IMG/VR virus record: IMGVR_UViG_3300032285_000892
Span: 55,149-119,148 of that record
Reading direction: 5' to 3' (one strand)
DNA: 64,000 nucleotides
DNA from: a virus
Made by a program: the position numbers and the translations under genes. Below are positions 21,549 through 54,105 of the stretch, piece after piece. Below the pieces are notes generated by a model. The model worked only from the letters and a program-made list of their open reading frames with translations, ran no database searches and was not told where the DNA came from. The first letter of the stretch is position 1. Every line of letters begins with the position of its first letter.

Positions 21549-24500
21549 ATGGACGTATCTTGTTCAACCTTTGAATGTCCCATTATATTAAACTCCCAAT
21601 GCGTATTTTACGAAGGGAGAAATTTAGTATACACAGGTGTTAATACTAATGATAACTTAGAAGTAGTTATACAGAAGATTGATGCAGCGTTTGGTGACGC
21701 TATGGTGGGATATATATTCTACAATGGTGTTGAACAATTAGCACCAGGAGATCCTGTAGGACTTGGTGGATCATTAAGTCATGATACAACAATATCAGGA
21801 AACTATAAATTAACTCTTGAAGGTCCTATACAATCAGCAGCATTTATTACTGCAGGTGGTACAAACCATCAAGTGGTATTAGGAGATGGTACATTAGGTA
21901 ACTTTGATACAGGAACTTCTGGTACTACAGGTACAAGCGGTACAAATGGTACAAGTGGAACAGCTGGTAGTTCAGGTACTTCTGCAACAAGTGGTAGACA
22001 AGGATCATCAGGAACATCTGGTAGTTCAGGATCTACAGGTACAAGTGCTTCTTCAGGTAGAAGTGGAAGCTCTGGAACATCTGGCTCTAGTGCATCATCA
22101 GGATCTAGTGGATCTTCAGGTAGTTCAGGATCTAGTGGATCTAGTGCATCATCTGGTACAAGTGCATCTTCTGGAACATCAGGAAGAACAGGTACTGCAG
22201 GTACTTCAGGATCATCTGGAGCAGCAGGAGATAGATTTAGAACATTCTCAACAGATACTCTTACATTAGGAGACGGTGGTAACTTGACTGTTGAGATAGG
22301 GTTAGCATATACACCTGGTCAGTTATTATTAATTTCACATGATTATAATAACTATCAAGAATGTCAACTTGTTAGTTATGATAGTGCCACTGGGGTGATG
22401 ACATTCTTAGCACCTCAACCAGATAATGTTGTTGGTTCAGGTACATATAGTGTTTGGACTGTTAACTTAGGAGGTGCTGCAGGTGGTGATGGTTCATCAG
22501 GTACTAGTGGATCTTCAGGAAGAGATGGAACTAGTGGTATAAATGGTACTTCAGGAACTAATGGTACAACAGGTACCTCAGGTAGAAGTGGTACTAATGG
22601 AACAACAGGTACAAGTGCTACATCTGGTACTAACGGAACATCTGGAAGAAATGGTACTTCAGGTACAACAGGAACTAGTGGTACTAACGGTACTTCAGGT
22701 ACTTCAGGATCAGCTGGTACTAACGGTACTTCTGCTTCTTCAGGTACTTCTGGTACAAGTGCAAGTTCAGGAACTAATGGTACAGCAGGTACTTCAGGAG
22801 CTAATGGAACAAGTGGTACTAGTGGATCGTCAGGTTCATCTGGTTCGTCAGGGTCTAGTGGATCTTCTGGCTCTAGTGGAAGTTCAGGAATTAGTGGTAA
22901 TGCTGGAACAAGTGGTTCATCAGGAACAAGTGCAAGAAATGGTACATCAGGAATAGATGGTTCATCAGGTGTATCGGGTACATCTGGATTAACAGGAACA
23001 TCAGGAGTATCAGGAACTGATGGTAGTTCTGGTACAAGTTCAACTTCAGGTACAAGTGGATCTTCAGGAACGTCAGGTTCAAATGGAACATCAGGAACTT
23101 CTGCATCTAGTGGTACTTCAGGAGAATCAGGTACTATGGGAACTAGTGGAACTTCTGGATCAAGTGGAAGTTCAGGCTCAAGTGCAACTGCAGGTACTAC
23201 TGGAACTAGTGGTACTACTGGAACTAGTGGTACAAGTGGAGCAGGTGGTGCTACAGGTACAGGAGGTACTTCAGGTACATCTGCCACAAGTGGTATATCA
23301 GGTATATCTGGTGGACAGGTATATTACATGAATCAATCTATCAATACATCATCTGCTTTTGGTAGCCCTACATATAAACAATTAAGTAGCACTCCTTCAG
23401 GAGCCGCACAACAAACTGTCACTACAACAGTACCAAGTAACACAACACAAACATTAGCAACTTTTGCTACAGATAGTAATGTTCCAGGAATTGCATCTCT
23501 CCCTGGTGGTAACTGGGGAGTTACAGCTCACTTCTTATCAAACACTAGTAATTCAGATTGGAACATCTATTATGAAGTATGGAAATACACAGTAGGAGGA
23601 ACATCCACATTATTAGGAACCACTAATGATGTATTGATTACATTAAATACCACTGTAGTTCAACAAGTGTATGCTGATACATTTATACCAGCTCAATCAT
23701 TAAACATAACAGATAGAATTTATGTTAACGTTGTTGCAATCAATTCTAGCAATCAGCCACATACTTTAATATTCTATACAGAGGGTACAAGTTACTATTC
23801 ATACGTACAAACAACATTCAATGCCCCTTCAGGAACATCAGGATCATCTGGTAGTTCTGGAACTTCTAGCACTTCAGGAACCAATGGTACAAGTGGTGTA
23901 AGTGGATCATCAGGTATTTCAGGTACTAATGGTACATCAGCATCTAGTGGTACAACTGGTACATCAGGTACCTCAGCAAGTTCTGGTTCATCAGGATCAT
24001 CAGGATCAAGTGCAACTAGTGGTACATCGGCTACAAGCGGTATATCAGGTGTAGAGGGAACAAGTGGTACATCTGCAAGTTCTGGTACATCAGCATCTTC
24101 AGGTACTTCTGGATCTACAGGTACATCAGGTTCTTCAGGATCAAGTGCAAGTAGTGGAACTAGTGGAACTAGTGGAAGTGATGGATCAAGTGGAGCAAGT
24201 GGTACTTCTGGTTCTTCTGGAACATCATCTACTAGTGGAGCTGATGGTACAAGTGGTACTTCTGGTTCTTCTGGTGTAAGTGGTGGTACAGGATCTACAG
24301 GTACTGCAGGAACCACTGGAACTAGTGGTACAACTGGTACAAGTGGAGTGAGCGGTACTAATGGTACTAGTGGTGCAGGAGGAGCAGGTGGTACTAATGG
24401 TACATCAGCTACTTCAGGTACATCAGCTACTTCAGGTACAAATGGTACCTCAGGTGCTGGTGGTGCAGCAGGAACAAGTGGTACAAATGGAACAACTGGT

Positions 24501-27500
24501 ACTTCAGGTACCAATGGAACTTCTGGAGCAGGCGGTGCAGCAGGAACATCAGGAACTAATGGCACAACTGGTACATCAGGTACTAACGGTACATCTGGTG
24601 CAGGTGGTGCAGCAGGTACCTCAGGTACAAATGGAACAAGTGGTGTTGCTGGAACTAGTGGAACAAATGGTACTTCTGGTGTAGGAGGAGCTGCTGGTAC
24701 ATCAGGTACCTCTGGTACAAACGGTACTAGTGCTACATCAGGTACCAATGGTACATCGGGTGCTGGTGGTGCAGCAGGAACTAGTGGTACAAACGGTACT
24801 AGTGCTACATCAGGTACCAATGGTACATCGGGTGCTGGTGGTGCTGCTGGTACATCTGGTACAAACGGAACTTCAGGTACAAACGGAACTTCAGGTACTG
24901 CAGGTGTAGGTTATGCTAACATTACATCAACAACATCTGCAACACCTGCATCAACTGGTACGATCACTCTAACAACAAATTCTCAGGGAGCATTTGTTAC
25001 AGGAAATAGAGTAAGAGCAGTCAATACTGTATCCAATTTATTTGAGGGTATTGTAACTATTACAGGTGGTACTTCATTTGCTATTGCAGCAGATTATAAC
25101 CTTGGTACAACCACTGCAACCTCTTGGACAATAAGCTTAGCAGGTGTTAGAGGAGTAGCAGGTACTGCAGGAACAAGTGGTACATCTGGTACCAATGGAA
25201 CATCAGGTGCTGGTGGTGCTGCTGGAACTGCTGGAACTAGTGGAACATCTGGTACTAATGGTACATCTGGTGCTGGAGGTGCAGCAGGTACAAGTGGTAC
25301 AAATGGTACTAGTGCTACGTCTGGTACAAACGGAACATCAGGTGCAGGAGGAGCTGCTGGTACCTCTGGTACAAATGGTACAAGTGCCACATCAGGAACC
25401 AATGGTACTTCTGGTGCTGGTGGTGCTGCTGGAACAAGTGGTACATCTGGTACTAATGGAACTTCTGCTTCGTCAGGTACATCAGGTACAAACGGAACGT
25501 CTGGTATAGCAGGTACTTCAGGAACCAATGGTACTTCTGGAATTTCTGGTACATCAGGTGCAGGTGGTGCTACTGGTACTGGTGGTACTGGTGGTACATC
25601 AGGTACAAATGGAACTAGCGGTGCTGGTGGTGCTGCAGGTACTTCAGGAACAAACGGTACATCAGGAATAACTGGTACATCAGGTACCAATGGTACATCG
25701 GGTGCTGGAGGTGCAGCAGGAACTAGTGGTACAAATGGAACATCAGGAGCTGGTGGTACTGGTGGTACTGGCGGAACGTCTGGTACTAATGGTACATCAG
25801 GTGTAGGATATGCTAATATTACATCAACTACATCAGCTACACCAGCCTCAACAGGTACAATAACATTAACTACAAACTCTCAAGGTGCGTTTGTTACAGG
25901 CGATAGAGTGAGAGCTATTAATACAGCAGCTAACTTATTTGAAGGGATTGTTACAATCACAGGTGGTACATCTTTTGCTATTGCTGCTGACTATAATTTA
26001 GGTACTACTACTGCTACATCCTGGACTATTACTTTAGCAGGTGTCAGAGGAATTGCAGGTACTTCAGGTACTGCAGGTACAAATGGTACATCAGGTGTAA
26101 GTGGTACATCTGGTGCAAGTGGTGCTGGTGGAACTGGTGGTACAAATGGTACGTCTGGTACAACAGGAACATCAGGAACAAACGGTACGTCAGGAGCTGG
26201 CGGTGCTGCTGGTACAAGCGGTACAAATGGTACAAGCGGTATTGCTGGTACCTCTGGAACAAGTGGTACATCAGGTGGTGGTGGAGCTGCTGGTACATCA
26301 GGTACAAATGGAACATCAGGAATAACTGGTACATCTGGTACAAACGGAACATCTGGTGCTGGAGGAGCTGCTGGTACAAGTGGAACATCAGCTACTAATG
26401 GAACTTCAGGTACATCAGGTGGTGGTGGAGCAGCAGGTACAAGTGGTACAAACGGTACAACTGGTACTTCAGGTGCTGGTGGTACTGGTGGGACTAGTGG
26501 TACAAGTGCTACAAGTGGTACATCAGGATTTGGTGGAACTGGTGGAACTAATGGTACAAGTGGTACAACAGGAACAAATGGTTCAAATGGTACCTCTGGA
26601 ACTAATGGTACAACAGGTACATCAGGAACTTCAAGTACTAGTGGTACTAATGGTACTTCTGGTGCTGGAGGAGCAACTGGTACTGGTGGTACATCAGGTA
26701 CAAACGGTACTAGTGGTGCAAGTGGTACATCAGGAATTAATGGTACCTCAGGACTTAATGGTACATCAGGAGTTAGTGGAGCACAAGGAACAGGTGGAGC
26801 TAACGGTACATCAGGACTTAGTGGTACCTCAGGAGTCAGTGGTACATCAGGTACAAGTTCTGCTATTAGAACTATACAAGTGTTCACTGCTACATCAGGA
26901 CAAAGTGTATTTACTATTAGTGGTGGATATACTCCTGGTCAGATAGATATGTATGTTAATGGTGTTAAACTGACAGCTGCTGAATATGATGCAACTAGTG
27001 GAACAACAGTAACTATAACAAGTGGTGTGATCCTTAATGATATTGTAGAAGCTTATATGTTCCAATCATTGATTGGATATATGGCTAACACTGCAACATC
27101 AGGTACATCAGGATCTAGTGGTAATGGTACAAACGGAACTTCTGGTACTACTTTTGGTACAGCAGGAACGTCTGGTGTTAGTGGTAATGGTACAGGAGGT
27201 ACTTCAGGTACTAATGGTACATCAGGAGCAAATGGTACCTTTGGAACTAGTGGTACCAATGGTACCAACGGTACAGCTGGAACATCTGGATCTAGTGGTC
27301 TATCTGTAGCATTTGCTGCTGGTGGTGTTACAAGTACAGGTGTATCTACTCTTGTATTCTCTAATGCTAATGGTGTATCATTTGGTATAAACAGTAACAC
27401 TATTACAGCGTCAGCTGCTGGTGGTGGAGCTGGTGTTCAGTCTTATTATGAGAATATGCCAGTACTTCCAGGTACTGCAGTTATACAATTAGCTGGAGCT

Positions 27501-29010: not shown

Positions 29011-29586
29011 ATGAATGAACAATTAGAAGAAGTTATTGCAGTTGATTTAGGCTGCGGACAAAACAAAGCAACTATAGAGTTCTTTACAAACAATATGCAA
29101 GTCACTCCCACTAAAGTGATTGGTTTGGATATAGCTAACTGTGAAGGCGTAGATATTGTACACGACTTAACTGTATTTCCATATCCTATTGAGGATGAAT
29201 CAGTTGACGCAATACATACATCTCATTTCATAGAACACTTAGATGGGTTTGAGAGAATGAAGTTCTTTGATGAGTGCTATAGGATATTGAAGAAAGGCGG
29301 AAAGATTAGAGCTATCCATCCTTATTACAAATCTGTAAGAGCTATTCAAGATCCCACACATAAGTTTCCACCTATTGGTGAGACATCTTATTTGTATTGG
29401 GATAAGAATTGGAGAGAAGTCAACAAGCTTGACCATTATCCTATTAAGTGTGACTTTGAATTTAATATTTTTTATACTTGGCAAGACCCAAGTATACCAA
29501 ACAAGAATGAAGAAACAAGGAATTTCAGTATTGATAAATACTGGAATGTTGTGGCTGATATGATTGTCGATTTAAAGAAACGATAA
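29011..29586 (+). CDS. Class I SAM-dependent methyltransferase
   Basis: VDLGCGQ motif I; YPIEDESVDAIHTSHFIEHL; ECYRILKKGG. Confidence 0.85.
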   Translation: MNEQLEEVIAVDLGCGQNKATIEFFTNNMQVTPTKVIGLDIANCEGVDIVHDLTVFPYPIEDESVDAIHTSHFIEHLDGFERMKFFDECYRILKKGGKIRAIHPYYKSVRAIQDPTHKFPPIGETSYLYWDKNWREVNKLDHYPIKCDFEFNIFYTWQDPSIPNKNEETRNFSIDKYWNVVADMIVDLKKR

Positions 29587-32753: not shown

Positions 32754-33023
32754 ATGAAATTAAATTTTAACTTCAACTTGGTTAACCTAGATGGTATAGA
32801 GATCGAGAATGCTAATGCAGGAAAAGTATTAGCAAACGCACTAGTTCAACAACCTAAAGGAGATGCTCTTAAAATATGGGAAATATCATTAGCTCTCAAC
32901 AAGGGAGAGATTGTTGATTTAGATTCTTCTGATCAAGAACTTATTAAAAACTTCATTAGAGAGACTGACGCAATTAATATTATTGCTAAGGGTCAAATCC
33001 TAACTGTTTTTAATAAAGGGTAG
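32754..33023 (+). CDS. Hypothetical protein (89 aa)
   Basis: Likely start ATG 32754 (MKLNFNFNLVNLDG...) after a promoter; its 3' end overlaps the convergent gene by 24 nt. Confidence 0.65.
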   Translation: MKLNFNFNLVNLDGIEIENANAGKVLANALVQQPKGDALKIWEISLALNKGEIVDLDSSDQELIKNFIRETDAINIIAKGQILTVFNKG

Positions 33024-34070
33024 TTTAACCATTACATCTTCTACGGAGATACTCTTATGGCATTCAAACTGTCTAGGAGTATCTTCGTGTTCAGGACACC
33101 AGTTCCAATTACCCTTATCAAATCTGAATTTAGGGTTATTCCAACATCCATTACATACACTTCTGTTTTCTATACGGATGCATTCAAACTCGTGATTAGC
33201 TTCTGTAAAGTTAGCTATCATTACAACAATAGTTTCTAATGCCCAGGCCAACCAGCTAATACCACTACTTAGTCCTATGTAGAAGTCACATCCATTAAGA
33301 TGATTAATGACGCTCTCTAGAGATGTATCTTCTAGTTTCTCTGCACCATAATCATCTGCCTCTTGTGATAATTCAATCACTCTATATCCTTGATCTTTTA
33401 GCCTACGTATAAGTTCTGGCCACTTATCCCAATGTTTGCATTGAGATGTACTTTTTGTAGATATACAGATATACTTTTCATCTTCCAGTAATAATCCTGG
33501 TAGATCAATTATCCTTGGTCTCATCTCCTTGTATGGTAGATGTAGAATATTACATGCGGCTTTCTGTAATGGTATCGTTACAGGATTAACAGGTTCTTTA
33601 TTACTATCCCAATGCCATCCTAAGTCTGGCATAGCTACAATATCATATACCACCTGCCCTGGTTGAACAAACTCAAGTTCAGGATACATACTTTCAAACA
33701 AGAAGTTCTTGAATGTGCTCACGATAACATCGCACTGATACTTCTTTTTGAACTCTAAACAATATGGCATCCATGCAATAGTATCTCCTAAGGAGCTGCT
33801 ACCAAATGCAATGAACACACGTTTATCTTTAAGATGTTGTAAGAAGCTTATGCGACGTTTCAATACACCCTTACTGTTCCTAGCTTCCAAAAAGAAGTTA
33901 CCAATGTAACGTATAGGAAACTTCATCCATGTATTCTTACTAAGAGTTGTACTATAGTGTTCTTTACGTTCACCATCAATCTCTTCAACAAATGTACATG
34001 TATAATCTTCATCACAGTCTGTAATTTCAAAGTACAAACCATCAATGTTATGGAAGTTATAATTAAACAT
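33000..34070 (-). CDS. Aah/TibC-like (BAHT) autotransporter-type protein O-heptosyltransferase homolog
   Basis: N-terminal beta domain; SSSLGDTIAWMPY; STSQCKHW; FYIGLSSGISWLAWA; four-Cys C-terminal pattern CNGCWN..WNWCPEH..RQFECHKSI like the TibC iron-binding motif. Confidence 0.8.
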   Translation of the reverse strand: MFNYNFHNIDGLYFEITDCDEDYTCTFVEEIDGERKEHYSTTLSKNTWMKFPIRYIGNFFLEARNSKGVLKRRISFLQHLKDKRVFIAFGSSSLGDTIAWMPYCLEFKKKYQCDVIVSTFKNFLFESMYPELEFVQPGQVVYDIVAMPDLGWHWDSNKEPVNPVTIPLQKAACNILHLPYKEMRPRIIDLPGLLLEDEKYICISTKSTSQCKHWDKWPELIRRLKDQGYRVIELSQEADDYGAEKLEDTSLESVINHLNGCDFYIGLSSGISWLAWALETIVVMIANFTEANHEFECIRIENRSVCNGCWNNPKFRFDKGNWNWCPEHEDTPRQFECHKSISVEDVMVKLPFIKNS

Positions 34071-35763
34071 ATGTTTCTATATAAGCTTTAGTTGTATCTT
34101 CACTTGTCCATCTCTTATTAATAATTCCTGCAGCATCGTACATCTTCTTTAATTGCTTACATATCACACTCCAATCATACTCTTCACGATGTTCTAGTTG
34201 ATCAGTGTAATATTTAAACCACCCTCTATCTAATGTTGCTAGTCCTTTTCTTGCTTCCATTTCTGTTACTTCTGACATTCTATACATACCAGGAACCTCT
34301 GCATTACATGTACCAACAATTGGTAATCCACAACTCATTGCTTCTAGAATGGCTAGGTTAGGATGGCCATACTCTAAGAATGATGGAGCCATGAATATAC
34401 TATGTGTTTGATAAAGCTCTAGTGTTTCTGCATCTGTAGGATTTGTACACTTTAAAGTTAACTTTTCATAGTCTAATAGATCTGGATGACCCTTAAAAAA
34501 CTCTAGGTTATTCTCAGGACCTGCAATAGTAATAGGTAACTTAAACCACTTAGCTGCAGCTATTGCTATCCTGAATCCTTTACGATCAATAGTGCTATCA
34601 CCTGCTAGTCCATTGTTACAGATCATTAATAGCTTCTTATCTTCACGCACATCTGGTAGAATAGGTTTGAAGAATTCTGTATCTACTCCATGAGATAGGA
34701 AGAATAACTTATCCGTATCATCAAAGTAATTAATGATGTGTTTACTATGACATATAGAAAACACAGATCCTTTGATAGCTGCTAGATTATTGTGGTATAC
34801 GCCACTGTCCTTCCCATAGTATTCAGCATGATGATCATGTAGAGAGTATACATATGGTATACCTTTGGCTAACATGTCAAGAGCTGTATTAGCCATATGA
34901 CAATGCACGAGTTGGTTCTCTTGCTTTGTTACTTCATTCCATTGTTGTATCTCTACATCTACGCCAAGTCTTCTAAGTCTATCTGTATATGACCAGATGA
35001 TACGTTCTACAGCTCCCCAACCATTAGGTGGGATAGTGATTAGGCCAGTGGCCACTTGTACTATCTTATATTTCATTTCTTTATTAATTTTCATTTCCCA
35101 TTTGTCTAGATATTTTTGTTCTCCTTGTCGCATTTTAATAATTGCAGAATCATTAAGATTTACTATGTTTAATGATTTAAGATGACTAACTAATGAATGT
35201 CTTACTAATGCATGCTTTATGCCTTTACTCTCTATTACTCTAGCATAGTCATTGTCCTGATAGTACATATCAAAGTTTTCATCCCAAGGACATACTAGAT
35301 CAAATACTCTTTTAGTCATTACAAAACACCAGCCACCTAAGAACTCTGTAACTTTATAACTTTCATAGTATGTATCATCACCATACATAAAATGATGGTC
35401 ATAGAATCTAGCATACAGTATAGGATCTCTAGGCGTGAATGATTCAATGTCTGGTCTTTCAGTATGTACATTTACAATCTCAGTGAACCAATTCTTTTCA
35501 AACAATAGATCATTGTTTATAATAACCACCCAGTCATTACTACAATACCTACTTGCTATATTGATATATTTATTATATCCAAAAGGTTCTTTTGAGATAA
35601 CGTAGCTATCTACATATTTAGAATAGTCCCAAGTCTCTCCTGATTCTACTAATATAATGTTAAATTTATGAGCCTTATCCGTATAGCGTAATGTGAACAA
35701 TGTTCTACATACCATCTCATAAGTTTCTGCATCTGTTTTAGTAAGACAAATTACATCTACCAT
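34063..35763 (-). CDS. Two-domain glycosyltransferase (GT2 + GT4)
   Basis: N-half: IINNDLLF, GWCF, YYQDNDY, VSHLKS. C-half: IPPNGWGAVE, HGVD, KGF, EYGHPNLAILEAMSCGLPIV. Confidence 0.85.
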   Translation of the reverse strand: MVDVICLTKTDAETYEMVCRTLFTLRYTDKAHKFNIILVESGETWDYSKYVDSYVISKEPFGYNKYINIASRYCSNDWVVIINNDLLFEKNWFTEIVNVHTERPDIESFTPRDPILYARFYDHHFMYGDDTYYESYKVTEFLGGWCFVMTKRVFDLVCPWDENFDMYYQDNDYARVIESKGIKHALVRHSLVSHLKSLNIVNLNDSAIIKMRQGEQKYLDKWEMKINKEMKYKIVQVATGLITIPPNGWGAVERIIWSYTDRLRRLGVDVEIQQWNEVTKQENQLVHCHMANTALDMLAKGIPYVYSLHDHHAEYYGKDSGVYHNNLAAIKGSVFSICHSKHIINYFDDTDKLFFLSHGVDTEFFKPILPDVREDKKLLMICNNGLAGDSTIDRKGFRIAIAAAKWFKLPITIAGPENNLEFFKGHPDLLDYEKLTLKCTNPTDAETLELYQTHSIFMAPSFLEYGHPNLAILEAMSCGLPIVGTCNAEVPGMYRMSEVTEMEARKGLATLDRGWFKYYTDQLEHREEYDWSVICKQLKKMYDAAGIINKRWTSEDTTKAYIETYV

Positions 35764-35768
35764 ATATA

Positions 35769-38396
35769 TTACTTTCTAAATGTTTTAAACTGCTGATCTA
35801 TTAATGAGTAACCATCTGCTTGTGTAGTGATACGATTGTGTACAATGCCCATCTCATATCCACTACCACGAAAAATGTTATTAAAATAAATATCTGCAGC
35901 ATCCCAAGGATGTGTTCTTAGTTTATCTTTTAAATAGTTCTTAACAAACTTAGGGAACATAATACATTGCATACCTATAAGATGGTTTGTAACATACATG
36001 TCTTCATTCACTTCTTTCACTACAGGACTCTGTGGCCAGCCAAAGTCTAAGGTATCTTTGTCACCAAATGACATGAATCCTATATTATTAGCTTCTAGCT
36101 TTGTGGCACATTCTTCCACCATGTAAACAAATTTGTTTACATCTACCTCAATTATGCAATCTCCTTCACACACTATTAGATAATCACATTCACTAAACTC
36201 ACCTAGGATAGCTTCTTTGAAGGCTGAATAGCAACCGTAGTGTGCTGGCGTAAGAGCTGTGCTTCTTTCTCTGACTGTAGCTTCATCGAATAACTCCATA
36301 GAGACTGCTTGTGGCCTGTTACAGTTATGGATGGGTGGGAGGCTACGATAAGGCTCGTTCGTGTGCAAGATGTACTCCCATCCATAATCTTGTACTTGCT
36401 CCAACGACGCTCTTGATAATTGTTCTCTGTCATCATTTAATGTAGTTTGTATGTGTACTAATTTAATCTTTGGTCTATTTGTTTTAGGAGCTGGTTCAGA
36501 TCCTGTTAATATCTTTATAGTTCCTTTTATATCGTTTACAGAAAACTCTCTTGTGGTTTGGTTTTCCACCAACTCTAAACTCACTGTAACAATATCATCA
36601 TCTAGTCGTAGATATGATTCTTTATACTTAAGATCTAGCTCTCTTGAGAACTCTCTCTTATTATTTAACAATCTCATCTTGTAGTAAGGAACAGTCTCAT
36701 TGTATGTATAGAAATAGAAGTAGTTACGATTGTCTTCTTCACATCTAACAATACCTATGTACTCACTATTAGAAGACTTGCCTTCGCCTGTATGTACTAA
36801 GAATGTTTCCTCTTCAGGATGTTCTACCCATATACCATCTGTTCTCTCTACCTTCTTCATCATGTAATCTTCTAAGAAGTTATGACATCCTATATACTCA
36901 CATAATGAATTGTATTGTTCAGGTGTACGTACATCATCTAATAATTTACTAATAAAGTTTGTATTAAAGAACATACAATTAGTTTGTATACCTTTACCAA
37001 ATGGCGTATTCAATGTAGCTAATACAGCTTTCCATTCTTCATCTAACTTATTAAAGTTATTATTGATGACATTAAAATCTCTTTCATCTATTACATGATC
37101 AAATGTTACATAGAACATCTTAGTAAAACCAAACACTTTAGCTGCTTTACCTGCATTAATTAAATTAGTTAGTACTGTTAATGACTGATTGGTAGGTCCT
37201 TCAATGCGCATCTCTACACTATAGTCTTCCTGACTGCGAGTGAATCTATTATAGTAGCTATGATGTGTCAAAGGATTATGCTCATCATAAATGTAGTAGT
37301 CTACCAGCTTCTGTACATCAGGATTTACAGGATAATGACTTACTAACATAATTGGTCTACCTAACTTCCTAGCGCTTTCTATACATGCAATAGTTAAGTT
37401 TTCTCTAATCTTAGTATCAGGATATGTTCCTATAACGATTAGTTCTTTATTAATTAATTCTAAGTTTAATATTTCTTTCATAGCAGCTATATCATTACTA
37501 ACGTTACCAGTTAAATAGGTGACGTCATCATAATCATTATACTTATTACAATACACATCTAGGTTGTACATCATCTTAGGTAGATCAGGATAGCATAATG
37601 CTTCTTTGATTGCAATAGGGTTAAGCTCTTTGTTACCTCTATCTCCTTTAGATGGAAATAAGAACATGTCAGACTCACTCACCCATTTACTTACTACATC
37701 TATTTCTCCATGAACTAAACAGTTGTCTGGTAGATCTTTCATTAATGGTTTCCAGTAGCTTTCAAAGTTACCAGCTTGATTACCTAAGAAGTGAAACTTT
37801 ATATTATAGTCTACAAGATGCTTAGCCATCTCAATAGCATAGCCTTGGTTTTTACGTTGTGTCCACAATCCTACAATTACTACATGTTTATAATCTCTTT
37901 GTTCTGGATAACGTACAATAGTATCTACAGGATACTCAATAACACGCATTGGTACTTCTAGATGAGCATACTTGAATACATTGTATGCACTAACAAACAC
38001 AAACTCATCTGGCATCCATCTCTTATGATCAGGATTGAATGAGCTATCATGTGTAGTTTCTACAATACGATAGGTTCTATCTCCACTGTACACTTCTCTG
38101 GTAAGATCATTGTCCATGAACATCTCTGGAAACTCTTCCATAGAGATGACATCAGGATTAAAGATTTCAATAAAATCTAAAAGCTCTCCCTTGTTATCTC
38201 CTAATGATTTAAAATTATCACCAAGGATATCAATCACCTTGTTGCGCTGTACTACATACTTCCATGCAATGAATGCATACTCAACTACCATGATATCAAA
38301 ATGATCCTTGAGTAGTTCTACTTTATTTAAAGTTACCTGTGGCGCTCCTCCTGTAGAGAAATGAGGAGATACTATTAAGAGCCTTTTTCGTGACAT
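35769..38396 (-). CDS. Three-domain glycosyltransferase (GT4 + unassigned middle domain + GT25-like)
   Basis: HFSTGGAPQV, RKNQ, ELNPIAIKEAL (GT4); middle domain VIGTYP..LVSHYP; C-terminal AHYGCY..LIVCEGD. Confidence 0.7.
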   Translation of the reverse strand: MSRKRLLIVSPHFSTGGAPQVTLNKVELLKDHFDIMVVEYAFIAWKYVVQRNKVIDILGDNFKSLGDNKGELLDFIEIFNPDVISMEEFPEMFMDNDLTREVYSGDRTYRIVETTHDSSFNPDHKRWMPDEFVFVSAYNVFKYAHLEVPMRVIEYPVDTIVRYPEQRDYKHVVIVGLWTQRKNQGYAIEMAKHLVDYNIKFHFLGNQAGNFESYWKPLMKDLPDNCLVHGEIDVVSKWVSESDMFLFPSKGDRGNKELNPIAIKEALCYPDLPKMMYNLDVYCNKYNDYDDVTYLTGNVSNDIAAMKEILNLELINKELIVIGTYPDTKIRENLTIACIESARKLGRPIMLVSHYPVNPDVQKLVDYYIYDEHNPLTHHSYYNRFTRSQEDYSVEMRIEGPTNQSLTVLTNLINAGKAAKVFGFTKMFYVTFDHVIDERDFNVINNNFNKLDEEWKAVLATLNTPFGKGIQTNCMFFNTNFISKLLDDVRTPEQYNSLCEYIGCHNFLEDYMMKKVERTDGIWVEHPEEETFLVHTGEGKSSNSEYIGIVRCEEDNRNYFYFYTYNETVPYYKMRLLNNKREFSRELDLKYKESYLRLDDDIVTVSLELVENQTTREFSVNDIKGTIKILTGSEPAPKTNRPKIKLVHIQTTLNDDREQLSRASLEQVQDYGWEYILHTNEPYRSLPPIHNCNRPQAVSMELFDEATVRERSTALTPAHYGCYSAFKEAILGEFSECDYLIVCEGDCIIEVDVNKFVYMVEECATKLEANNIGFMSFGDKDTLDFGWPQSPVVKEVNEDMYVTNHLIGMQCIMFPKFVKNYLKDKLRTHPWDAADIYFNNIFRGSGYEMGIVHNRITTQADGYSLIDQQFKTFRK

Positions 38397-39331
38397 GTTA
38401 TTGTTTTTGCAAGGTTATACACTCTATCTACGTCTGGTTGACACTCAAACGTTTCTTTGTTTTCTAAACATCCAATGAGTGGCTGCACATAATCTATAGT
38501 GGGCCAATACTCAAGGGCGTACTTCATATTGGAGCAGCAATGTAGATCACACGATCCCTCTACATAGTGGTATCGATACGTCTGACCATTGGCCCTATAA
38601 GGTATTCTAAATTCAGGAGATAGTGCAGATCCTAGATGAATGATCTCACTGCGTGTTGTACCTGCTAGATGTAGCAGTCCGCTATCCATTGTAATAAAAC
38701 ATGAAGCTTTGTTGATGAGGTGCCAGCAATCAGATATACTGGTCTTGTTCATTAGGTTCATACCTAATGGTATTTCAAAATTGAATGCAGGTTTTTCTAC
38801 ATTAAAGAACCCAGTCTCACTACTATCCTTACCTATACTGATGACATGTATACCTGCAGCATTAAGCTTCTCTGTTAAATCCATCCACTTATCTGCTGGC
38901 CATGTTCTATTAGCCCATGTGGTTACAGGATGTATCAATACATAATGTTCAGGGAGTTCCATCTCAAAGTCTGTGAGAGGAATGTAATCACATTTCATCT
39001 CACTCTTACGTAACATAAATCCTAAATGTATAGCATGGAACTGACGTATGTCCATGGTATTATGCTTCATCTCTACACCACGCTCATCTTTCTTACCTAC
39101 CAGATAGAAAGAGTTATGCATGATATAATTATCATTGAAGTAACCCCAGTCAATTGATGTATGTTTATAACTAGCCTCTACGTATGGTAGTTTCTTGAAC
39201 AACTCTGGCATAGGACTCACCACAGTTATCTTCTTTCCGTATGATTCAGCTAGCTTTCTTATCGTAGGCGTTGCACAGATAAGATCACCTAGAGCAGGAC
39301 ATTCACTAAGATTAAGACAAACAGGTTTCAT
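38375..39331 (-). CDS. GT9-family (heptosyltransferase-like) glycosyltransferase
   Basis: ALGDLICATP, WANRTWP, FITMDSGLLHLAG, Cys-rich C-terminus (CDLHCC..CL..C). Confidence 0.85.
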   Translation of the reverse strand: MKPVCLNLSECPALGDLICATPTIRKLAESYGKKITVVSPMPELFKKLPYVEASYKHTSIDWGYFNDNYIMHNSFYLVGKKDERGVEMKHNTMDIRQFHAIHLGFMLRKSEMKCDYIPLTDFEMELPEHYVLIHPVTTWANRTWPADKWMDLTEKLNAAGIHVISIGKDSSETGFFNVEKPAFNFEIPLGMNLMNKTSISDCWHLINKASCFITMDSGLLHLAGTTRSEIIHLGSALSPEFRIPYRANGQTYRYHYVEGSCDLHCCSNMKYALEYWPTIDYVQPLIGCLENKETFECQPDVDRVYNLAKTITCHEKGS

Positions 39332-39972
39332 GATTTTCTCATTAAGAAGTCAACTGTCTCATCGTTTCTCTCAATTATTTCATATCCTAATCCTGTTAGA
39401 AAATTCACTGCAGTGTTTGTATTATCTTCTAACCAGATAAGTGGTGCATCTCTATCAATCAACTTTAACATACCTTCAAATGCAGACATCTCATGACCTT
39501 CTATATCTATCTTAATGAATTCAACATGCTCATCTAAATGAAGATCATCTAAAGCTAAGACTATATTTCTATTATGTCCATATTGAACAATTCTTACAAC
39601 ACCACTATTTGAGTAATGTCCATCATCAAAATGCACAAGGGATGTTCTACTACCTACACCTACATTAAGTGCGGCTACATCAGAATACCTATCTGTATTC
39701 TGTTTTAATAAAGCAAAGTTTTCTGGATGAATTTCAAAAGCTATGATATTTAGCTCAGGAAAGTGGTGTTTGAATTGTACACAATGTGCACCTATGTTAG
39801 CACCAATGTCTAACATTAGTCCTGTAGAAGGGAAATGATGTTTCCATCTATTGAATATTTCAAATTCCCAAAAGTTATTATACTTAACTATATCGTCTGA
39901 TATAAACTCAGGACCCTCAAAAATAATCATAGGGTTACCTTGTATACTAGTAAGTCTAGTTCCTCTTCTCAT
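39328..39972 (-). CDS. FkbM-family methyltransferase
   Basis: LDIGANIGAH, AFEIHPEN, FIKIDIEGHE. Start ATG 39972 (or 39933) lies downstream of a minus-strand promoter. Confidence 0.85.
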   Translation of the reverse strand: MRRGTRLTSIQGNPMIIFEGPEFISDDIVKYNNFWEFEIFNRWKHHFPSTGLMLDIGANIGAHCVQFKHHFPELNIIAFEIHPENFALLKQNTDRYSDVAALNVGVGSRTSLVHFDDGHYSNSGVVRIVQYGHNRNIVLALDDLHLDEHVEFIKIDIEGHEMSAFEGMLKLIDRDAPLIWLEDNTNTAVNFLTGLGYEIIERNDETVDFLMRKS

Positions 39973-39975
39973 GTA

Positions 39976-40007
39976 TTTGTTGGTTTGGTCAAAGTTAAAT
40001 ATATTTG
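39976..40007 (+). promoter_or_regulatory. Bacteroidota-type promoter, overlapping and divergent to the minus-strand promoter
   Basis: TTTG(39976-79)-N20-TATATTTG(40000-07); ATG at 40024. Confidence 0.6.
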
Positions 40008-40020
40008 TATAAAAAAACAA
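39990..40020 (-). promoter_or_regulatory. Bacteroidota-type promoter driving the glycosylation cassette
   Basis: Minus strand TTG(40020-18)-N20-TAACTTTG(39997-39990). Confidence 0.6.
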
Positions 40021-42327: not shown

Positions 42328-42329
42328 TA

Positions 42330-46274: not shown

Positions 46275-47291
46275 ATGAGGGAATTAAAGTTTATCTGTGC
46301 ACAGCCAGATGATACGTATTATACGTGGCAGGTGCATTTATGGATTGAGAGTCTTAGAAATATAGGACACTCAGACAAAGCAATCGTTCTTATCTTTATT
46401 CCTAACTTCAGGGAGAAGAATGAGAAATGGCAACAGGTAATAGATCTATATCCAGAAACAGAATTTGTATTCTATAAGGATGTAGATGGTGTAAGTAATA
46501 AGCTAGGAGTTTACATTCCTGTTCTTAGGCCGTATGTGCTGATGAGATACTTCTACGAACATCCAGAGATGAAAGAGAAAGCAGTATTCTATTGCGACTC
46601 TGACGTAGTCTTTACAGATAAATTTAATGTTGATACATTTATTGATGATGATGTAAATTATTTATCAGATACAAACAGTTACATCAACGCCTCATATTTT
46701 GATAGTAAAATTCATCAAGTGCTTCCTGATAAGTTGGAAGCATATAAAAAGATAGATGTTCTAGCACAAGCTACAGAGATGTGTGATATCACACGCCAAA
46801 TAGCAGAAGCAAACAACGATCATTCTGGTGGTGCTCAGTATTTGTTAAAGAACATTGATGGAGCATTCTGGGAAAAAGTATTAAGAGATTGTATTTCAAT
46901 ACGTACGTATTTACAAAACATCAATCGTTTATACTTCAAAGATGAGAATAGTGGTTTCCAGAGTTGGTGTGCAGACATGTGGGCAGTTTTATGGGCTCTT
47001 TGGTTTAGAGGTGCTGAAACGAAGAATATTCCTGAGTTGGAATTCTCGTGGAGCTCAGATCCTATTGACAAAGTCCACAGGTTAGGTATTCTACACAATG
47101 CAGGAATAGTTAGTAATGACATGGGTGATTACCCAGCATTCTACAAAGGACATTATCACATGGGTAAAGATCCTATGTTAGACGCTCATTTAGAATATGT
47201 CTATAATGATGATAGAGCAAAACAAAAAGGAACACATTATTACGTTGAACAATTAATTAAATTAAAACAAAAGTATAAATTAAACTATTAA
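46275..47291 (+). CDS. GT-A glycosyltransferase resembling HPAT/SERGT (GT95/GT96) peptide O-glycosyltransferases
   Basis: N-terminal D.YY.WQ..L; VFYCDSDVVF (DxD); GGAQY; WCADMWAVLWAL; C-terminal HNAG. Confidence 0.55.
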   Translation: MRELKFICAQPDDTYYTWQVHLWIESLRNIGHSDKAIVLIFIPNFREKNEKWQQVIDLYPETEFVFYKDVDGVSNKLGVYIPVLRPYVLMRYFYEHPEMKEKAVFYCDSDVVFTDKFNVDTFIDDDVNYLSDTNSYINASYFDSKIHQVLPDKLEAYKKIDVLAQATEMCDITRQIAEANNDHSGGAQYLLKNIDGAFWEKVLRDCISIRTYLQNINRLYFKDENSGFQSWCADMWAVLWALWFRGAETKNIPELEFSWSSDPIDKVHRLGILHNAGIVSNDMGDYPAFYKGHYHMGKDPMLDAHLEYVYNDDRAKQKGTHYYVEQLIKLKQKYKLNY

Positions 47292-50005: not shown

Positions 50006-50692
50006 ATGGAACTTAAAAAAGTTCATATAGCTACTGCAAATTTTGGTAGACCAAACGCAGCTGATGTTGTAAATATGGTTGAACAAGATACAGAACACAG
50101 TATAACTACCATTGCATATACAGATAGTAATTCTAAATATAGTCGTGAGTTAGCACTACATCCTAGATTAAAGGGTAAAATCCCTAGAATGTTAGAATGG
50201 ATGAATATTGATGCTGATTTCTACATATGGATGGATTCAAATTTTAAAATAACTTCTCCTTTATTCATTGAAGAAATGATTAAGGCGCTTGGTAATTATG
50301 ATATTTGTTTACATCCTCATGAACATAGAAGTTCTATTTTAGAAGAAGGAAAATTTGTACATCATCATCTTATAAATAATGAAGATGAGTTTGCTCATAA
50401 GTATTTAGTTGATAGATATAAAGGAGAGCCAATAATGGATCAAGTAGAGTCATATTTACTTGATGACTCTTTTCAAGATTTAAATTTGTTTTCTACAGGA
50501 TTTTTTATCTTTAACAAAAGGATTATAGAGAACAAGAATTATAATTTAATGACGGATTGGTTCTTTCATAACTGTTACTGGACAGTGCAAGATCAATTAT
50601 CACTTCCGTATTTATTACATAAGCATAATATTAACTATACAACTTTTCCGTATAATGTTTATAGTAATCCATACGCACAGTATGTTTGGTAA
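50006..50692 (+). CDS. DUF616/TOD1-MUCI70-like glycosyltransferase domain protein
   Basis: KIPR, YIWMDSNF, HPH.HRSSILEE, QDQLSLPYLL. Confidence 0.7.
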   Translation: MELKKVHIATANFGRPNAADVVNMVEQDTEHSITTIAYTDSNSKYSRELALHPRLKGKIPRMLEWMNIDADFYIWMDSNFKITSPLFIEEMIKALGNYDICLHPHEHRSSILEEGKFVHHHLINNEDEFAHKYLVDRYKGEPIMDQVESYLLDDSFQDLNLFSTGFFIFNKRIIENKNYNLMTDWFFHNCYWTVQDQLSLPYLLHKHNINYTTFPYNVYSNPYAQYVW

Positions 50693-51242: not shown

Positions 51243-51279
51243 TTTGTTCATTTCATAATTGTGATTCATTTCGTTAAGT

Positions 51280-51312
51280 AAAAAGGAGACCATTGGCCTC
51301 CTTTTTCTTTTT
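51280..51312. terminator. Bidirectional intrinsic terminator between convergent blocks
   Basis: AAAAAGGAG-a-CC-att-GG-c-CTCCTTTTT with T/A tracts on both sides. Confidence 0.75.
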
Positions 51313-51958
51313 ACAATCCTAAGAATGATTTATATGAAGATGAATGTGACGCATGTTCTATATAATACTTGAATTCTTTATCTTTATCGTATTCTTCTGG
51401 AGTGTATTCCCAAGGATAATGTCTAGCTGTATAGGGATTTATTGTACTAGCTCCTCCTATATAATAATGATGGAATTTATATAGTGCAAATGTTGTATCT
51501 GTAGGAACATCAAGTGCTACATCTTGTTCTATTCTAGAGTTTTCCCATCTAGTTTTTTCATATCCTTGCATATGATTATAATATCTAGAATACTCAGTAA
51601 CTCTTTTCCAATCTAAACCCAGTCCTATCTTATCTAAATCTAAACTTTTTAGTTTGTCTAGTAGATATAGAAGAGTATCACTAGGTGTATCATCTAGTCC
51701 AAGATCTGAATCTGTAACTATATAATATTCACAATTTAATGAATCTACTACTCCTGAAACCCAAGGACCTCCGTGACCTAAGTTAGTAGCCTTGTGTATC
51801 TTACAAGGGCTTGTTTCATACCAATCTAATAAAGGTGGATATGTTGATCCATTATCTACAATAATAACATCACCTACTCCTTCATATGTTTGAATTTTTT
51901 CAACCATAGCTTTTGGCCAGGTAAACAAATCTCTGTTATTAATTACAACTGGTATCAT
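51311..51958 (-). CDS. GT2-like glycosyltransferase
   Basis: IPVVINNRD, IIVDNGSTYPPL, YYIVTDSDL. Confidence 0.75.
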   Translation of the reverse strand: MIPVVINNRDLFTWPKAMVEKIQTYEGVGDVIIVDNGSTYPPLLDWYETSPCKIHKATNLGHGGPWVSGVVDSLNCEYYIVTDSDLGLDDTPSDTLLYLLDKLKSLDLDKIGLGLDWKRVTEYSRYYNHMQGYEKTRWENSRIEQDVALDVPTDTTFALYKFHHYYIGGASTINPYTARHYPWEYTPEEYDKDKEFKYYIEHASHSSSYKSFLGL

Positions 51959-52500
51959 TTATGTATAACTAATAATTTCTTATCACATAACCATTCAATG
52001 TTTTGATATGATTTATTAGATAAGATACTCATTATATCATCGTATGTCTTATCTACTTCAGCATGACCTGCATGAAGATCTTCTATAAAATAATAACCTC
52101 CTTTTGTAAGGCGGTCGTAAAGTATCTTAAATGAGTTAACAATATCTGAACGATTGTGGCTACCATCATCTATAATGAAATCTGGAGTTCCTGATTTCTC
52201 TAGTACGGTATTTAAAAAAACTTCATCTGATTGATCGCCTATATATATTTTGATGTTATCTGTTTCATTAACATATTTATATACATTAGTATCAATATCT
52301 ATAGCATGAATATTTAGTTGTGGGTTATAATCATTCCACATACGTAATGAATCACCATGCCATATTCCTATTTCTAATAGAGTGAACTTACCTGTTTCAG
52401 GAATATAAAAATCATACTGTTCAGTATATCCATGCTTTTCGTAATGTTCTGTACCTTTATCTACTTTATGTAGATTAGCAATTTGTGTAAGTCTTCTCAT
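51955..52500 (-). CDS. Class I SAM methyltransferase (sugar O-methyltransferase-like)
   Basis: DKGT.H.Y...Y; LLEIGIWHGDSLRMW; IIDDGSH; GGYYFIEDL. Confidence 0.8.
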   Translation of the reverse strand: MRRLTQIANLHKVDKGTEHYEKHGYTEQYDFYIPETGKFTLLEIGIWHGDSLRMWNDYNPQLNIHAIDIDTNVYKYVNETDNIKIYIGDQSDEVFLNTVLEKSGTPDFIIDDGSHNRSDIVNSFKILYDRLTKGGYYFIEDLHAGHAEVDKTYDDIMSILSNKSYQNIEWLCDKKLLVIHK

Positions 52501-53066
52501 TAGTTATGTACAAATAATATTTTTTCAATCTTTAAATTAGGTTCTTGTGGAAATTTTGTAAGATAATCTAATATGTAATAACCATCAGCGTCATATCTTT
52601 TACCTAATTCTATTTGTTTAGCAATATCATTTCTTGTAGCAAATGCTCCCATATCTATTTGATTATTACCTAATCTAGAATCAAAAAACTGATAGTCAAA
52701 ATGAGAATGTACCATGTTCCAATAAATAAGACCTGGTTTATTTTTAGAAGCTTTGTCTAATTCATCTACAAAATTAGGAGTGTAATAATTATCATCTCCT
52801 GTCATGATGATATATTCTGCCTCACTCATTTGTTTACCCACTTCTCTAGGAGTGTGTCCTAAATCATTATATCTTCTGTCAAGGAATGTATATTTAATTC
52901 TAGGATCATTAAATTGATTAATCATATTAACAATATCATCATTATGAGTATCATCTATTACAATATTAGCAGCCCAGTCTTTATTATACTGAGCTACTAA
53001 TGATGCAATTGTACACCTTAATAAATCAATTCTATCATATGTAGGAATTATAAAGTCTACTTTCAT
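52500..53066 (-). CDS. GT2-family glycosyltransferase
   Basis: IIPTYDR, GHTPRE.G, IMTGDDNYY, IDMG.F, ADG. Confidence 0.8.
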   Translation of the reverse strand: MKVDFIIPTYDRIDLLRCTIASLVAQYNKDWAANIVIDDTHNDDIVNMINQFNDPRIKYTFLDRRYNDLGHTPREVGKQMSEAEYIIMTGDDNYYTPNFVDELDKASKNKPGLIYWNMVHSHFDYQFFDSRLGNNQIDMGAFATRNDIAKQIELGKRYDADGYYILDYLTKFPQEPNLKIEKILFVHN

Positions 53067-53818
53067 TTACTTATATGATCTTTAAGCAATTGTTGATAAT
53101 CTATATTCCAATGAGGATTAATGATAATTTCTCCAGTGGGTATATTTCCTAACTCTCTTTCTGATTCTACATGAGCAGAATGTCTTTGAATAGCATTAGG
53201 TCTTTCTCCATCGTCAGTACCCTGACCACTCATATGATAACCTCTACCTCCCCACATATAAAACCAACTCACTTCTTCATTAGATGGGTATGCTACGATC
53301 ATTGGTTTAGCACCTTGTCTGTAAATAATTTGGTTAACAAATGTAGTATCGTATCCAGCATTCTCAAGAGGATGTCCTCCTAACTCTTCCCAGATCTTTT
53401 TAGTATACACTATACCTGAGTTACCAAGTCCTGTTAACTCATGTATATTACCACCATTAACTAACGCACCGTTTCCCCACAATAAAAGTTCTCCTTCTTC
53501 TGTAAAGTACTTAGCAATATTAGAAAGATGATTTGGCAAAGCTATATCATCATCATCCCATACAGCAATTAGTTCTCCTGAACATTGTTCTAATGTAAAG
53601 TTTTCCTTTTCACCTATGGTGAGAAATGTCTCTTCTAGATTGATTATCTTGATTTCTGGATGATCATATGATAACTTTTGTAGAGGATAGTCATTAACAA
53701 TAATTAACTCTTTCTGTCCAGCATAATCTTGCTTTAAGAAAGACTCTACTGCCTCTTCTAGAAAATGCAATCTACCATAGGTGATACATTTACATGATAT
53801 GAAAGGAAGACGTTCCAT
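53063..53818 (-). CDS. GT2-family glycosyltransferase
   Basis: CITYGR..LEEAVESFL.QDY.G.KELIIVND; AVWDDDDI; GYD. Start ATG 53818. Confidence 0.85.
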   Translation of the reverse strand: MERLPFISCKCITYGRLHFLEEAVESFLKQDYAGQKELIIVNDYPLQKLSYDHPEIKIINLEETFLTIGEKENFTLEQCSGELIAVWDDDDIALPNHLSNIAKYFTEEGELLLWGNGALVNGGNIHELTGLGNSGIVYTKKIWEELGGHPLENAGYDTTFVNQIIYRQGAKPMIVAYPSNEEVSWFYMWGGRGYHMSGQGTDDGERPNAIQRHSAHVESERELGNIPTGEIIINPHWNIDYQQLLKDHISK

Positions 53819-54105
53819 TACCAAACAAGGATTACATCAAATGGAGATACTAATAACTTGTTCTCTCCATTGATAGGAATCACTGGTGCTTTACCTAAAG
53901 ATGATGGATCTACCAAGATCTCATCTCCTGCTTTAATGTCTGTAATAAGATCACCTACAGCATACACAGTGAGCTTGTTAAGCTTTTGCATCATCTCTTT
54001 CTCAAGAGCTTCTTTTGTGTTCTCATCCACAATAAGTTTACCTTCGTCTTTCTTGGGAAGGTCTAGCAATATTCTATTGCCACGTAATAATTTAAAGTCT
54101 GCCAT
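53818..54105 (-). CDS. groES: GroES-like co-chaperonin
   Basis: LRGNRILL, VYAVG, IKAGDEILV, LLVS..DVI: Cpn10 pattern with a helical mobile loop. Confidence 0.6.
   Translation of the reverse strand: MADFKLLRGNRILLDLPKKDEGKLIVDENTKEALEKEMMQKLNKLTVYAVGDLITDIKAGDEILVDPSSLGKAPVIPINGENKLLVSPFDVILVW

Follow-up and report, generated by a model that had tools for sequence, protein, structure and literature searches.

A locus in which glycosyltransferase (GT) genes lie among fibre genes raises the question of what a phage glycosylates. It is found in IMG/VR virus record IMGVR_UViG_3300032285_000892, a single contig of 119,148 bp, of which bases 55149–119148, the second half of the genome, were analysed; this stretch of 64,000 nucleotides is the window in what follows, and genes are designated by their window positions (Table 1). 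The record is that of a complete, crAss-like freshwater phage: its ends overlap by ~123 bp, it falls in the class of records with direct terminal repeats, and its completeness is rated at 100%. We suggest, with a probability of about 65%, that this phage glycosylates its own virion fibres by means of several gene modules centred on one enzyme, a TibC-type GT of the BAHT family that is predicted to lack the thumb of TibC. A preliminary description of the same DNA had counted about ten GT genes with at least 12 GT domains and three methyltransferases. We find seven firm GT genes (six by Pfam, and 46275 by AlphaFold2 (AF2) modelling and Foldseek) with eight domains, and a further three that are only probable (28270, 50006 and 51311), while all three methyltransferases (29011, 39328 and 51955) are recovered by Pfam.

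The most conspicuous candidate acceptor is the fibre of 2222 residues that begins at 21549. It matches PF01391 with an E-value of 2.6e-101 in 19 stretches, although this model is compositionally simple and its match demonstrates the repeat rather than the fold. The repeat comprises ~369 G-X-Y triplets in 27 runs, which are broken by globular inserts. The triplets are of the types G-T-S, G-T-N and G-S-S, with Thr at X in 237, Ser at Y in 197 and Asn at Y in 62. The runs contain 498 Ser/Thr residues and no proline, and charged residues make up only 3.6% of the whole protein, so that neither the proline or hydroxyproline nor the charge pairs that stabilise a collagen helix are present. The proline-free, Ser/Thr-rich collagen-like fibre of the preliminary description is therefore real. 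Its N-terminal anchor is kept in relatives at 56–59%, and its tip domain is kept in other phages. A second collagen-like fibre, of 975 residues and with a Peptidase_S74 chaperone, is encoded upstream of the window.

The candidate enzyme is encoded at 33000–34070, and its earlier reading as an Aah/TibC-like GT proved correct. It scores 227 bits against TIGR04414 (equivalog cut-off 200) over model positions 47–370 of 374, aligns with TibC (PDB 4rap) over 288 residues with an E-value of 4e-43, and is assigned by Pfam to GT9. The residues needed in TibC have been defined by structure and mutagenesis (PMC4358343), mutagenesis having established the need for Asp110, Lys230, Trp305 and the four cysteines of the iron finger. 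The catalytic base Asp110, the phosphate contacts Thr226 and Lys230, and the sugar contact Trp305 are all identical in the phage enzyme, and do not vary among 28 phage homologues or among the 50 clade-A rows of the tree described below; the iron-finger cysteines (1Fe-0S; Cys339, Cys342, Cys358 and Cys370) are kept as well, again without variation in the 28, and are conserved in essentially all of 109 homologues. Arg286, which contacts adenine N1 and confers ADP-sugar specificity, is replaced by Val, and a deletion of ten residues corresponds to TibC 261–270, that is, the tip of the beta-hairpin thumb (Phe265/Val266). In TibC, this thumb joins dimers into a dodecamer ring (PMC4358343). Because the protein passes the family model yet carries both the thumb deletion and the Arg286Val replacement, we classify it from its sequence as a genuine BAHT family member of a distinct, thumb-less clade, whose donor and oligomeric state may differ from those of TibC.

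A FastTree phylogeny built on 111 BAHT domains, taken from phages and from GTDB genomes, fell into two halves, clade A with 50 rows and clade B with 59. Clade A comprises every phage copy except those of two loci (L023 and L024), together with some bacterial metagenome-assembled genomes (MAGs), whereas clade B comprises Burkholderia, Bradyrhizobium, Acetobacter, Sporomusa, Lentisphaerae and others. The position equivalent to Arg286 is Arg in 59 of 59 clade-B rows vs. 11 of 50 in clade A, and the thumb segment is 17–18 residues long in all 59 clade-B rows, but only 8–10 in 43 of the 50 in clade A. The division is also one of genomic neighbourhood: all 31 BAHT genes that adjoin a G-X-Y protein belong to clade A, against none of 54 scored loci in clade B.

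The pairing of enzyme and repeat extends beyond this phage. In 17 of 28 BAHT loci in IMG/VR, a large, Pro-poor (1–2%) and Ser/Thr-rich G-X-Y fibre lies within 10 kb of the enzyme, and the same pairing occurs in independent lineages, namely those of loci L020, L022 and L026/27, Microcystis phage Mel-JY01, and the 735-kb phage LR756501. GenBank is poor in such enzymes, with a homologue of 33000–34070 in only 4 of 50,697 phage records. Elsewhere the BAHT domain is found in fusions, with a GT4-type domain in many phages (680–1177 residues), with GT9 (L020), with a protein like 34063 (L022–L024), and, in Mel-JY01, as the C-terminal part of a protein that bears the annotation ‘methyltransferase FkbM’ (CDS 4750–8430, ~1226 residues). 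Members of the minus-strand operon at 33000–40020 are thus fused to BAHT in other phages, which ties them to one pathway. In the literature that we searched, we found no paper describing a BAHT-type enzyme paired with a collagen-like phage fibre.

The G-X-Y-adjacent loci of clade A include bacterial chromosomes. In the 5.2-Mb Arenicellales chromosome OZ244198.1 (L130:8495-12565), a clade-A BAHT gene is flanked within 120–200 nucleotides by three lipoprotein-like genes, each of whose products combines a signal peptide, with a G-C lipobox at its end, with (G-S/T-S)n repeats and a C-terminal poly-Asp stretch, and comparable pairs occur in several gammaproteobacterial MAGs (L126–L132). The closest BAHT matches outside viral databases (47–51% identity) are on three short MAG contigs (L115, L117 and L118) binned with Bacteroidota under the labels Bacteroides, Sediminibacterium and Chitinophaga; one of these, L115, also has three G-X-Y fibre open reading frames (ORFs). 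These contigs are probably from phages, and hint at a Bacteroidota host. In addition, homologues of the DUF7936 gene at 32383–32697 (+; E 1e-22) adjoin the BAHT gene in several relatives (L007, L016, L017, L030 and L031).

Within the phage’s own family, we compared ten near-complete genomes and three long fragments, scoring them only where the interval from fibre to lysis genes was contiguous. Among the scored genomes, whose capsids are 95–98% identical, 11 have both a G-X-Y fibre and a BAHT gene, three have neither, and none is discordant. The fibres of the 11 are Pro-poor and Ser/Thr-rich, with 156–553 triplets; the three others (G003, G008 and G010) have the same N-terminal fibre anchor, a non-collagen shaft, and no BAHT gene. 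In a tree of a neighbouring core gene, G003 and G008 are sisters with a near-identical relative, G004, that has both elements, and G010 stands apart, a topology that implies at least two changes of the joint fibre/BAHT state. Another type of fibre, with G-G-G-x-x-N-T-A-S-G-type repeats of ~14 residues and an endosialidase-chaperone-like C-terminus, is encoded in G004 (C1:108095-113782, −) and G003 (C1:68933-76384, +), and in G003 this shaft replaces the collagen-like one behind the same anchor. Since G003 keeps a beta-roll fibre without BAHT, the enzyme tracks the G-X-Y shaft and not beta-roll fibres such as 29620–32367.

The co-occurrence of GT cassettes and such fibres that had been anticipated therefore holds for the operon at 33000–40020, which alone tracks G-X-Y fibres, and fails for 46275 and 53063, which are kept in relatives devoid of them. 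A relation between GT number and G-X-Y length, also anticipated, was not visible among 11 genomes: G002 has 553 triplets and few separate GT genes, whereas GT genes are most numerous in the genome studied here, with its 475 triplets, and fusion proteins confound the GT count.

The remaining genes have partners of their own. The GT-A enzyme at 46275 was present in 13 of 13 relatives examined (61–84% identity), including those without G-X-Y fibre or BAHT, and in nearly every one it lies mostly 0.2–1.8 kb from one to three small proteins (not detected in G010/L261). These share an N-terminal domain that is followed by Thr/Ser runs of 7–50 residues and often by a variable C-terminal domain. In the window, the small protein is that of 47297–47794, with three runs of seven Thr; it is a candidate acceptor of 46275, and the two are candidates for a second, separate enzyme–acceptor pair. 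The probable GT-A gene 28270 starts 53 nucleotides past the fibre stop codon (28217), and 28270 and 29011, which close relatives lack, recur in another phage group (L195–L198; 75–79% and 68–76% identity) directly after fibres that have only the C-terminal tip domain of ~300 residues in common with the 2222-residue fibre and no G-X-Y repeat. In the ten near-complete relatives, 28270, 29011, 50006, 51311, 51955 and 52500 are absent or present at only ~35% identity, and for 52500 a comparison with 11 relatives shows it to be private to this genome. The cassette of 50006 and 51311–53824 is mostly private likewise, with the exception of the near-core GT2 53063, which has homologues at ~60% identity in seven of ten relatives and at ~30% in two more, again including relatives without a G-X-Y fibre. 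As these groups differ in conservation and in partners, they do not read as one integrated pathway of ten GTs, as the preliminary description had it, but, going by gene content, as at least three modules: the BAHT operon with G-X-Y fibres, the core GT-A with poly-Thr proteins, and a trio of fibre tip, GT-A and methyltransferase.

The same pattern also speaks for an alternative in which only the TibC-type enzyme, with any partners fused to it, is a fibre GT and the other GTs and methyltransferases are unrelated morons that decorate, for instance, the capsid, other virion proteins or small molecules. The persistence of 46275 and 53063 where G-X-Y fibres or BAHT are missing, the patchiness of the other six genes, and the association of 28270 and 29011 with a tip domain rather than a G-X-Y shaft would all be expected of a moron hot-spot. 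Each module nevertheless still adjoins a Ser/Thr-rich protein of structural type, and we consider this alternative unlikely, though it overlaps in part with the explanation that we prefer.

For that preferred explanation, fibre glycosylation by several modules, gene identities, active-site conservation and genomic co-variation are observed; we infer which protein accepts the glycan, which sugar is used, in what order the enzymes act, and what the glycan does, be it to stabilise the helix, to shield the fibre or to bind the host. Glycosylation would take place in the host cytoplasm and draw on host nucleotide sugars. The minus-strand operon, which runs from 40020 to 33000 in the order FkbM methyltransferase, GT9, GT4 multidomain protein, GT2+GT4 protein and TibC-type enzyme, would assemble an O-glycan, short and perhaps methylated, on Ser/Thr residues in the proline-free repeats (Gly-Thr-Ser/Asn) of the 2222-residue fibre and probably also of the 975-residue fibre. 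The TibC-type enzyme would form the protein–sugar bond, and the fused or neighbouring GTs would lengthen the chain. The core GT-A 46275 would probably have the poly-Thr tails of 47297-type proteins as its acceptors, and 28270 with 29011 probably the fibre tip domain. The priming, extension and methyl-capping order and the helix-stabilising role put forward in the preliminary description are of the same conjectural kind; overall, its observation is partly confirmed, and its interpretation is partly supported.

Several points weigh against fibre glycosylation. Every characterised BAHT substrate is a beta-helical autotransporter passenger and not a collagen-like repeat (PMC4358343), and, with Val in place of Arg286, the donor may not be ADP-heptose. 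About four to five BAHT phage lineages (L021, L023/24, L029, LR756504 and L016–18) show no G-X-Y protein in the available sequence. Only about two independent events lie behind the co-variation within the family, which could reflect linkage in a recombining cassette, the genes being physically close. Finally, the cassette 51311–53824 is mostly private and is co-oriented with replication genes.

The last point, together with the hypervariability of the fibre/GT region (BAHT 42–65% identical, capsid 95–98%), would also suit the view that the GTs remodel a host envelope glycan such as lipopolysaccharide (LPS) core, O-antigen or exopolysaccharide, blocking superinfection or lessening the sticking of progeny to debris, with fibre type and GT set co-varying via a common receptor. 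GT9, GT2 and GT4 are mostly families of polysaccharide and LPS enzymes, LPS-core GTs are likewise soluble or peripheral, and 38375 has a weak score against LPS heptosyltransferase models, although far under every NCBIfam cut-off for them. We nevertheless think envelope remodelling improbable, though it keeps some likelihood for the GT9, GT2 and GT4 enzymes, because 33000 satisfies the equivalog model of a protein-modifying family, because co-variation is with the G-X-Y shaft and not with the tip, and because the same clade adjoins (G-S/T-S)n lipoproteins in bacterial chromosomes, where the logic of a phage receptor does not apply. In addition, a hydropathy scan of all 107 ORFs placed transmembrane segments, one or two each, only in small lysis-type proteins; none of the GTs has one, no protein is multi-pass, and no membrane flippase, polymerase, ligase or integral-membrane GT (Gtr-type or Wzx/Wzy-dependent) was found in the genome, which indicates that a lipid-linked, exported glycan pathway is not encoded. 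The absence of nucleotide-sugar synthesis and export genes that had been reported for the window extends to the whole genome: there is no nucleotidyltransferase, epimerase, PfkB kinase, SIS isomerase, cytidylyltransferase-like or heptose-pathway gene, and the donors must therefore come from the host.

Sugar hypermodification of the phage’s DNA as a means of evading restriction is very improbable: many phage GTs do act in this way, as cited in PMC12619734, and a divergent gene like those of the uracil-DNA-glycosylase superfamily lies elsewhere in the genome (1710–2426 of the genome, −; a weak Pfam match, E 8e-4, below the cut-off). Against it, the complete genome has no PF00303, the thymidylate-synthase-type pyrimidine hydroxymethylase that would supply the acceptor base (the control matched in 10 of 14 genomes), BAHT-family enzymes are protein-specific, and the fibre module contains or adjoins the GTs.

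A bolder version of fibre glycosylation can also be formulated, in which the thumb-less BAHT clade would be a dedicated collagen-repeat O-glycosyltransferase. Sugars on Thr/Ser of proline-free, uncharged repeats would replace the stabilisation that hydroxyproline provides, long glyco-collagen fibres would be made in phages and, as lipoproteins, in some bacteria, and shaft and operon would be swapped as one host-range or stability cassette between phages with near-identical capsids. We offer this version tentatively, and rather doubt that all of it will hold.

The heptosylation of autotransporters by BAHT enzymes is already known (PMC4358343). The TibC–TibA and Aah–AIDA-I systems of E. coli (TIGR04414; PDB 4RAP/4RB4) resemble the phage system in having a homologous enzyme above the equivalog cut-off with the same catalytic and iron-finger residues, and in being formed of a cytoplasmic enzyme encoded beside a repetitive, Ser/Thr-rich surface protein, the presumed target of hyper-glycosylation. 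They differ in that the phage enzyme has no dodecamer-building thumb, has Val for Arg286, and is, in its type, often fused to GTs or part of a protein with the annotation FkbM methyltransferase, and in that its neighbour is a proline-free collagen-like fibre, with no autotransporter identified nearby.

To our knowledge, virion protein glycosylation has been documented for very few bacteriophages; Freeman et al. reportedly described it for mycobacteriophages in Cell Host Microbe in 2023. As in mycobacteriophages, soluble GTs of the phage, encoded here beside structural genes, would modify Ser/Thr-rich segments of virion proteins, and the 47297-type poly-Thr tails resemble C-terminal acceptor extensions. 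In contrast, the families here are BAHT and GT9, the putative acceptors are not capsid or tail-tube subunits but fibres and small tailed proteins, the capsid protein has no Ser/Thr tail (Ser+Thr 13%), and the host may be Gram-negative. Mycobacteriophage virion glycosylation is cited as known in PMC12619734 and PMC11256854.

Glycosylated Thr can replace hydroxyproline in stabilising the triple helix, as summarised in PMC11923368. The exosporium protein BclA of Bacillus anthracis and the cuticle collagen of Riftia (PMC11923368) both have Thr-rich G-X-Y repeats with little or no hydroxyproline, and their helices are believed to owe stability to O-glycosylation of Thr. The phage repeat differs from these in having Thr mainly at X and Ser/Asn at Y, no proline and almost no charge, and in being viral with a BAHT transferase candidate. 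Giant viruses and chloroviruses are also said to encode multidomain GTs with methyltransferase domains that are cytoplasmic and target virion proteins, PBCV-1 reportedly having a multidomain GT/methyltransferase, but their hosts are eukaryotic, the GT families are others, and the acceptors are capsid proteins.

Table 1. Fibre, candidate acceptor, glycosyltransferase and methyltransferase genes of the window, with the evidence for each assignment.
Feature	Coordinates	Strand	Evidence or architecture
Fibre, 2222 residues	21549..28217	+	N-terminal anchor, G-X-Y shaft, C-terminal tip domain of ~300 residues
Probable GT-A-type GT, 240 residues	28270..28992	+	PHROG 1574; Pfam GT2, E 0.12 over DxD region
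Class I S-adenosylmethionine (SAM) methyltransferase	29011..29586	+	Methyltransf_11, E 3.8e-10
Fibre or tail-spike-like protein, 915 residues	29620..32367	+	PHROG tail spike / virion structural protein, E 5e-27
TibC/Aah-type (BAHT) protein O-glycosyltransferase, thumb-less clade	33000..34070	-	TIGR04414 and PDB 4rap
Two-domain GT	34063..35763	-	N-terminal GT2 (GT-A, PF00535); C-terminal GT4/GT1 (GT-B, PF13692/PF00534); PHROG glycosyltransferases
Multidomain protein, 875 residues	35769..38396	-	Residues 1-313 GT4-type GT-B (PF13692, GT1_4; VIA-align Z 17)
Divergent GT9 (heptosyltransferase-family) enzyme	38375..39331	-	PF01075, E 5e-18
FkbM-family methyltransferase	39328..40020	-	PF05050, E 1.3e-15; first gene of minus-strand GT operon
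Putative tail-fibre-like protein, 680 residues	43275..45317	+	PHROG tail fiber, E 9e-4; Recep_L/LRR_5 weak
Core GT-A-fold GT	46275..47291	+	AF2 mean predicted local distance difference test (pLDDT) 91.3; Foldseek glycogenin/GT6/UGGT, E 2e-6
Protein with poly-Thr tail, 165 residues	47297..47794	+	Conserved N-domain; C-terminal T7-RA-T7-RAA-T7
Probable TOD1/MUCI70-like GT-A	50006..50692	+	Protein Atlas only: 29/30 nearest clusters carry PF04765, score 0.98
Probable GT-A/GT2-like GT	51311..51958	-	VDNGS and DSD motifs; JGI names homologues 'glycosyltransferase'
SAM methyltransferase	51955..52500	-	Methyltransf_24 (PF13578), E 5e-8
Short GT2	52500..53066	-	PF00535, E 4.7e-10
GT2, near-core in phage family	53063..53824	-	PF00535, E 1.8e-12

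The other enzymes of the window vary in how closely they can be assigned. The 46275 family, with 2671 homologues and an invariant D108-x-D110, had no match in Pfam or in a PDB profile search, and its fold is nearest to GT8, GT6 and GT24 structures. For 28270 there are 3248 homologues, one of which, at 78% identity, is named Glyco_tranf_GTA_type. The 50006 protein itself has no Pfam match, and a PDB profile search with the 51311 family gave only spurious, non-significant DtxR matches; when 51311 was compared with the GT2s of the window by hhalign, the GT-A motifs were aligned but the match was not significant. Beyond residue 313, the 875-residue protein appears to contain two alpha/beta domains and a beta-sandwich, in a poor AF2 model of low confidence (pLDDT 63, alignment of seven sequences); Pfam found nothing in its middle and C-terminal thirds, nor did a PDB profile search with the protein. 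A Foldseek alignment of this model to COLGALT1, with a root-mean-square deviation of ~22 Å, was set aside as a lead only. Two family labels of the preliminary description were not reproduced. Searched through the genome at E≤1, PF01755 (GT25) matched nothing, whereas its control matched in B. thetaiotaomicron; PF23452, for the HPAT/SERGT-like (GT95/GT96) label, matched nothing at the same threshold, but its control was likewise silent, leaving a weak Atlas link in which PF23452 is found on 10% of one neighbouring cluster.

The preliminary description had also placed Ser/Thr-rich, low-complexity virion proteins at 21549, 43275 and 47297, and this applies well to the first and the last. The protein of 43275–45317 has a moderate Ser/Thr content (24%) and a single run of 13 triplets, and is at most a weak candidate acceptor. 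That of 29620–32367 contains repeated N-x-[AS]-[IVL]-G motifs and 27% Ser/Thr, and neither Pfam nor PDB sequence searches gave a match to it; a YadA-head-like beta-roll (P0002), proposed from a visual reading without such a match, was not retained. The poly-Thr gene is followed by a DUF5856 gene (47794–48213, +; E 4e-14). An ORF at 50723–51085 (+), lying after the TOD1-like GT and before the second GT cassette, encodes a very Lys/Gly/Ala-rich protein of 120 residues with a C-terminal C-x-Y-G-C-H, a fragment of which is kept in G010 (74% over 39 residues).

The major capsid protein, encoded in the upstream half of the genome together with a P22-like portal, is of Crassvirus type (PF23898, E 1e-27); RecA, ribonucleotide reductase, an exonuclease and an rIIB-like protein are encoded at the far end of the window. 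A likely lysis cassette (40558–42947, +) is divergent from the minus-strand GT operon across a gap of ~540 bp, and comprises small proteins with one transmembrane segment (40844–41116 and 41113–41748) and a Peptidase_M15_4 endolysin (41899–42327). Positions 3915–16409 (+) form a single ORF of 4164 residues without a significant Pfam domain, with ~50% identity over 2287 residues to an ORF of 4518 residues in G003; G004 has an ORF of similar size (4157 residues). Its product is probably a crAss-type giant virion or cargo protein. Across the same family genomes, identity is 95–98% for the capsid (genome 28675–30228), 64–85% for RecA (window 55427–56512) and 42–65% for BAHT, and the contrast of the capsid with the other two reflects either unusually strong capsid constraint or a recent sweep of the capsid module through diverged genomes. 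The closest isolates are very distant, namely Leptolyngbya phage Lbo-JY46 (25% capsid identity) and Flavobacterium FpV4-type phages, and megablast of the 28–48 kb region against GenBank phages gave no match. Capsid relatives are found in more than 600 IMG/VR stretches, the best 80 loci listed being 96–98% identical; the family is abundant and uncultured.

If fibre glycosylation is true, a very abundant family of environmental phages glycosylates its virions routinely, and the BAHT family would be extended from the autotransporters of virulence to a second class of substrate. It would also suggest how Gly-Thr-Ser repeats that have neither proline nor charge can make stable fibres, and it defines a compact enzyme–substrate pair that is suited to testing by co-expression. 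Fibres coated with glycans would bear on host range, on shielding from immunity and proteases, and on how ‘auxiliary’ GT genes in metagenomes are read.

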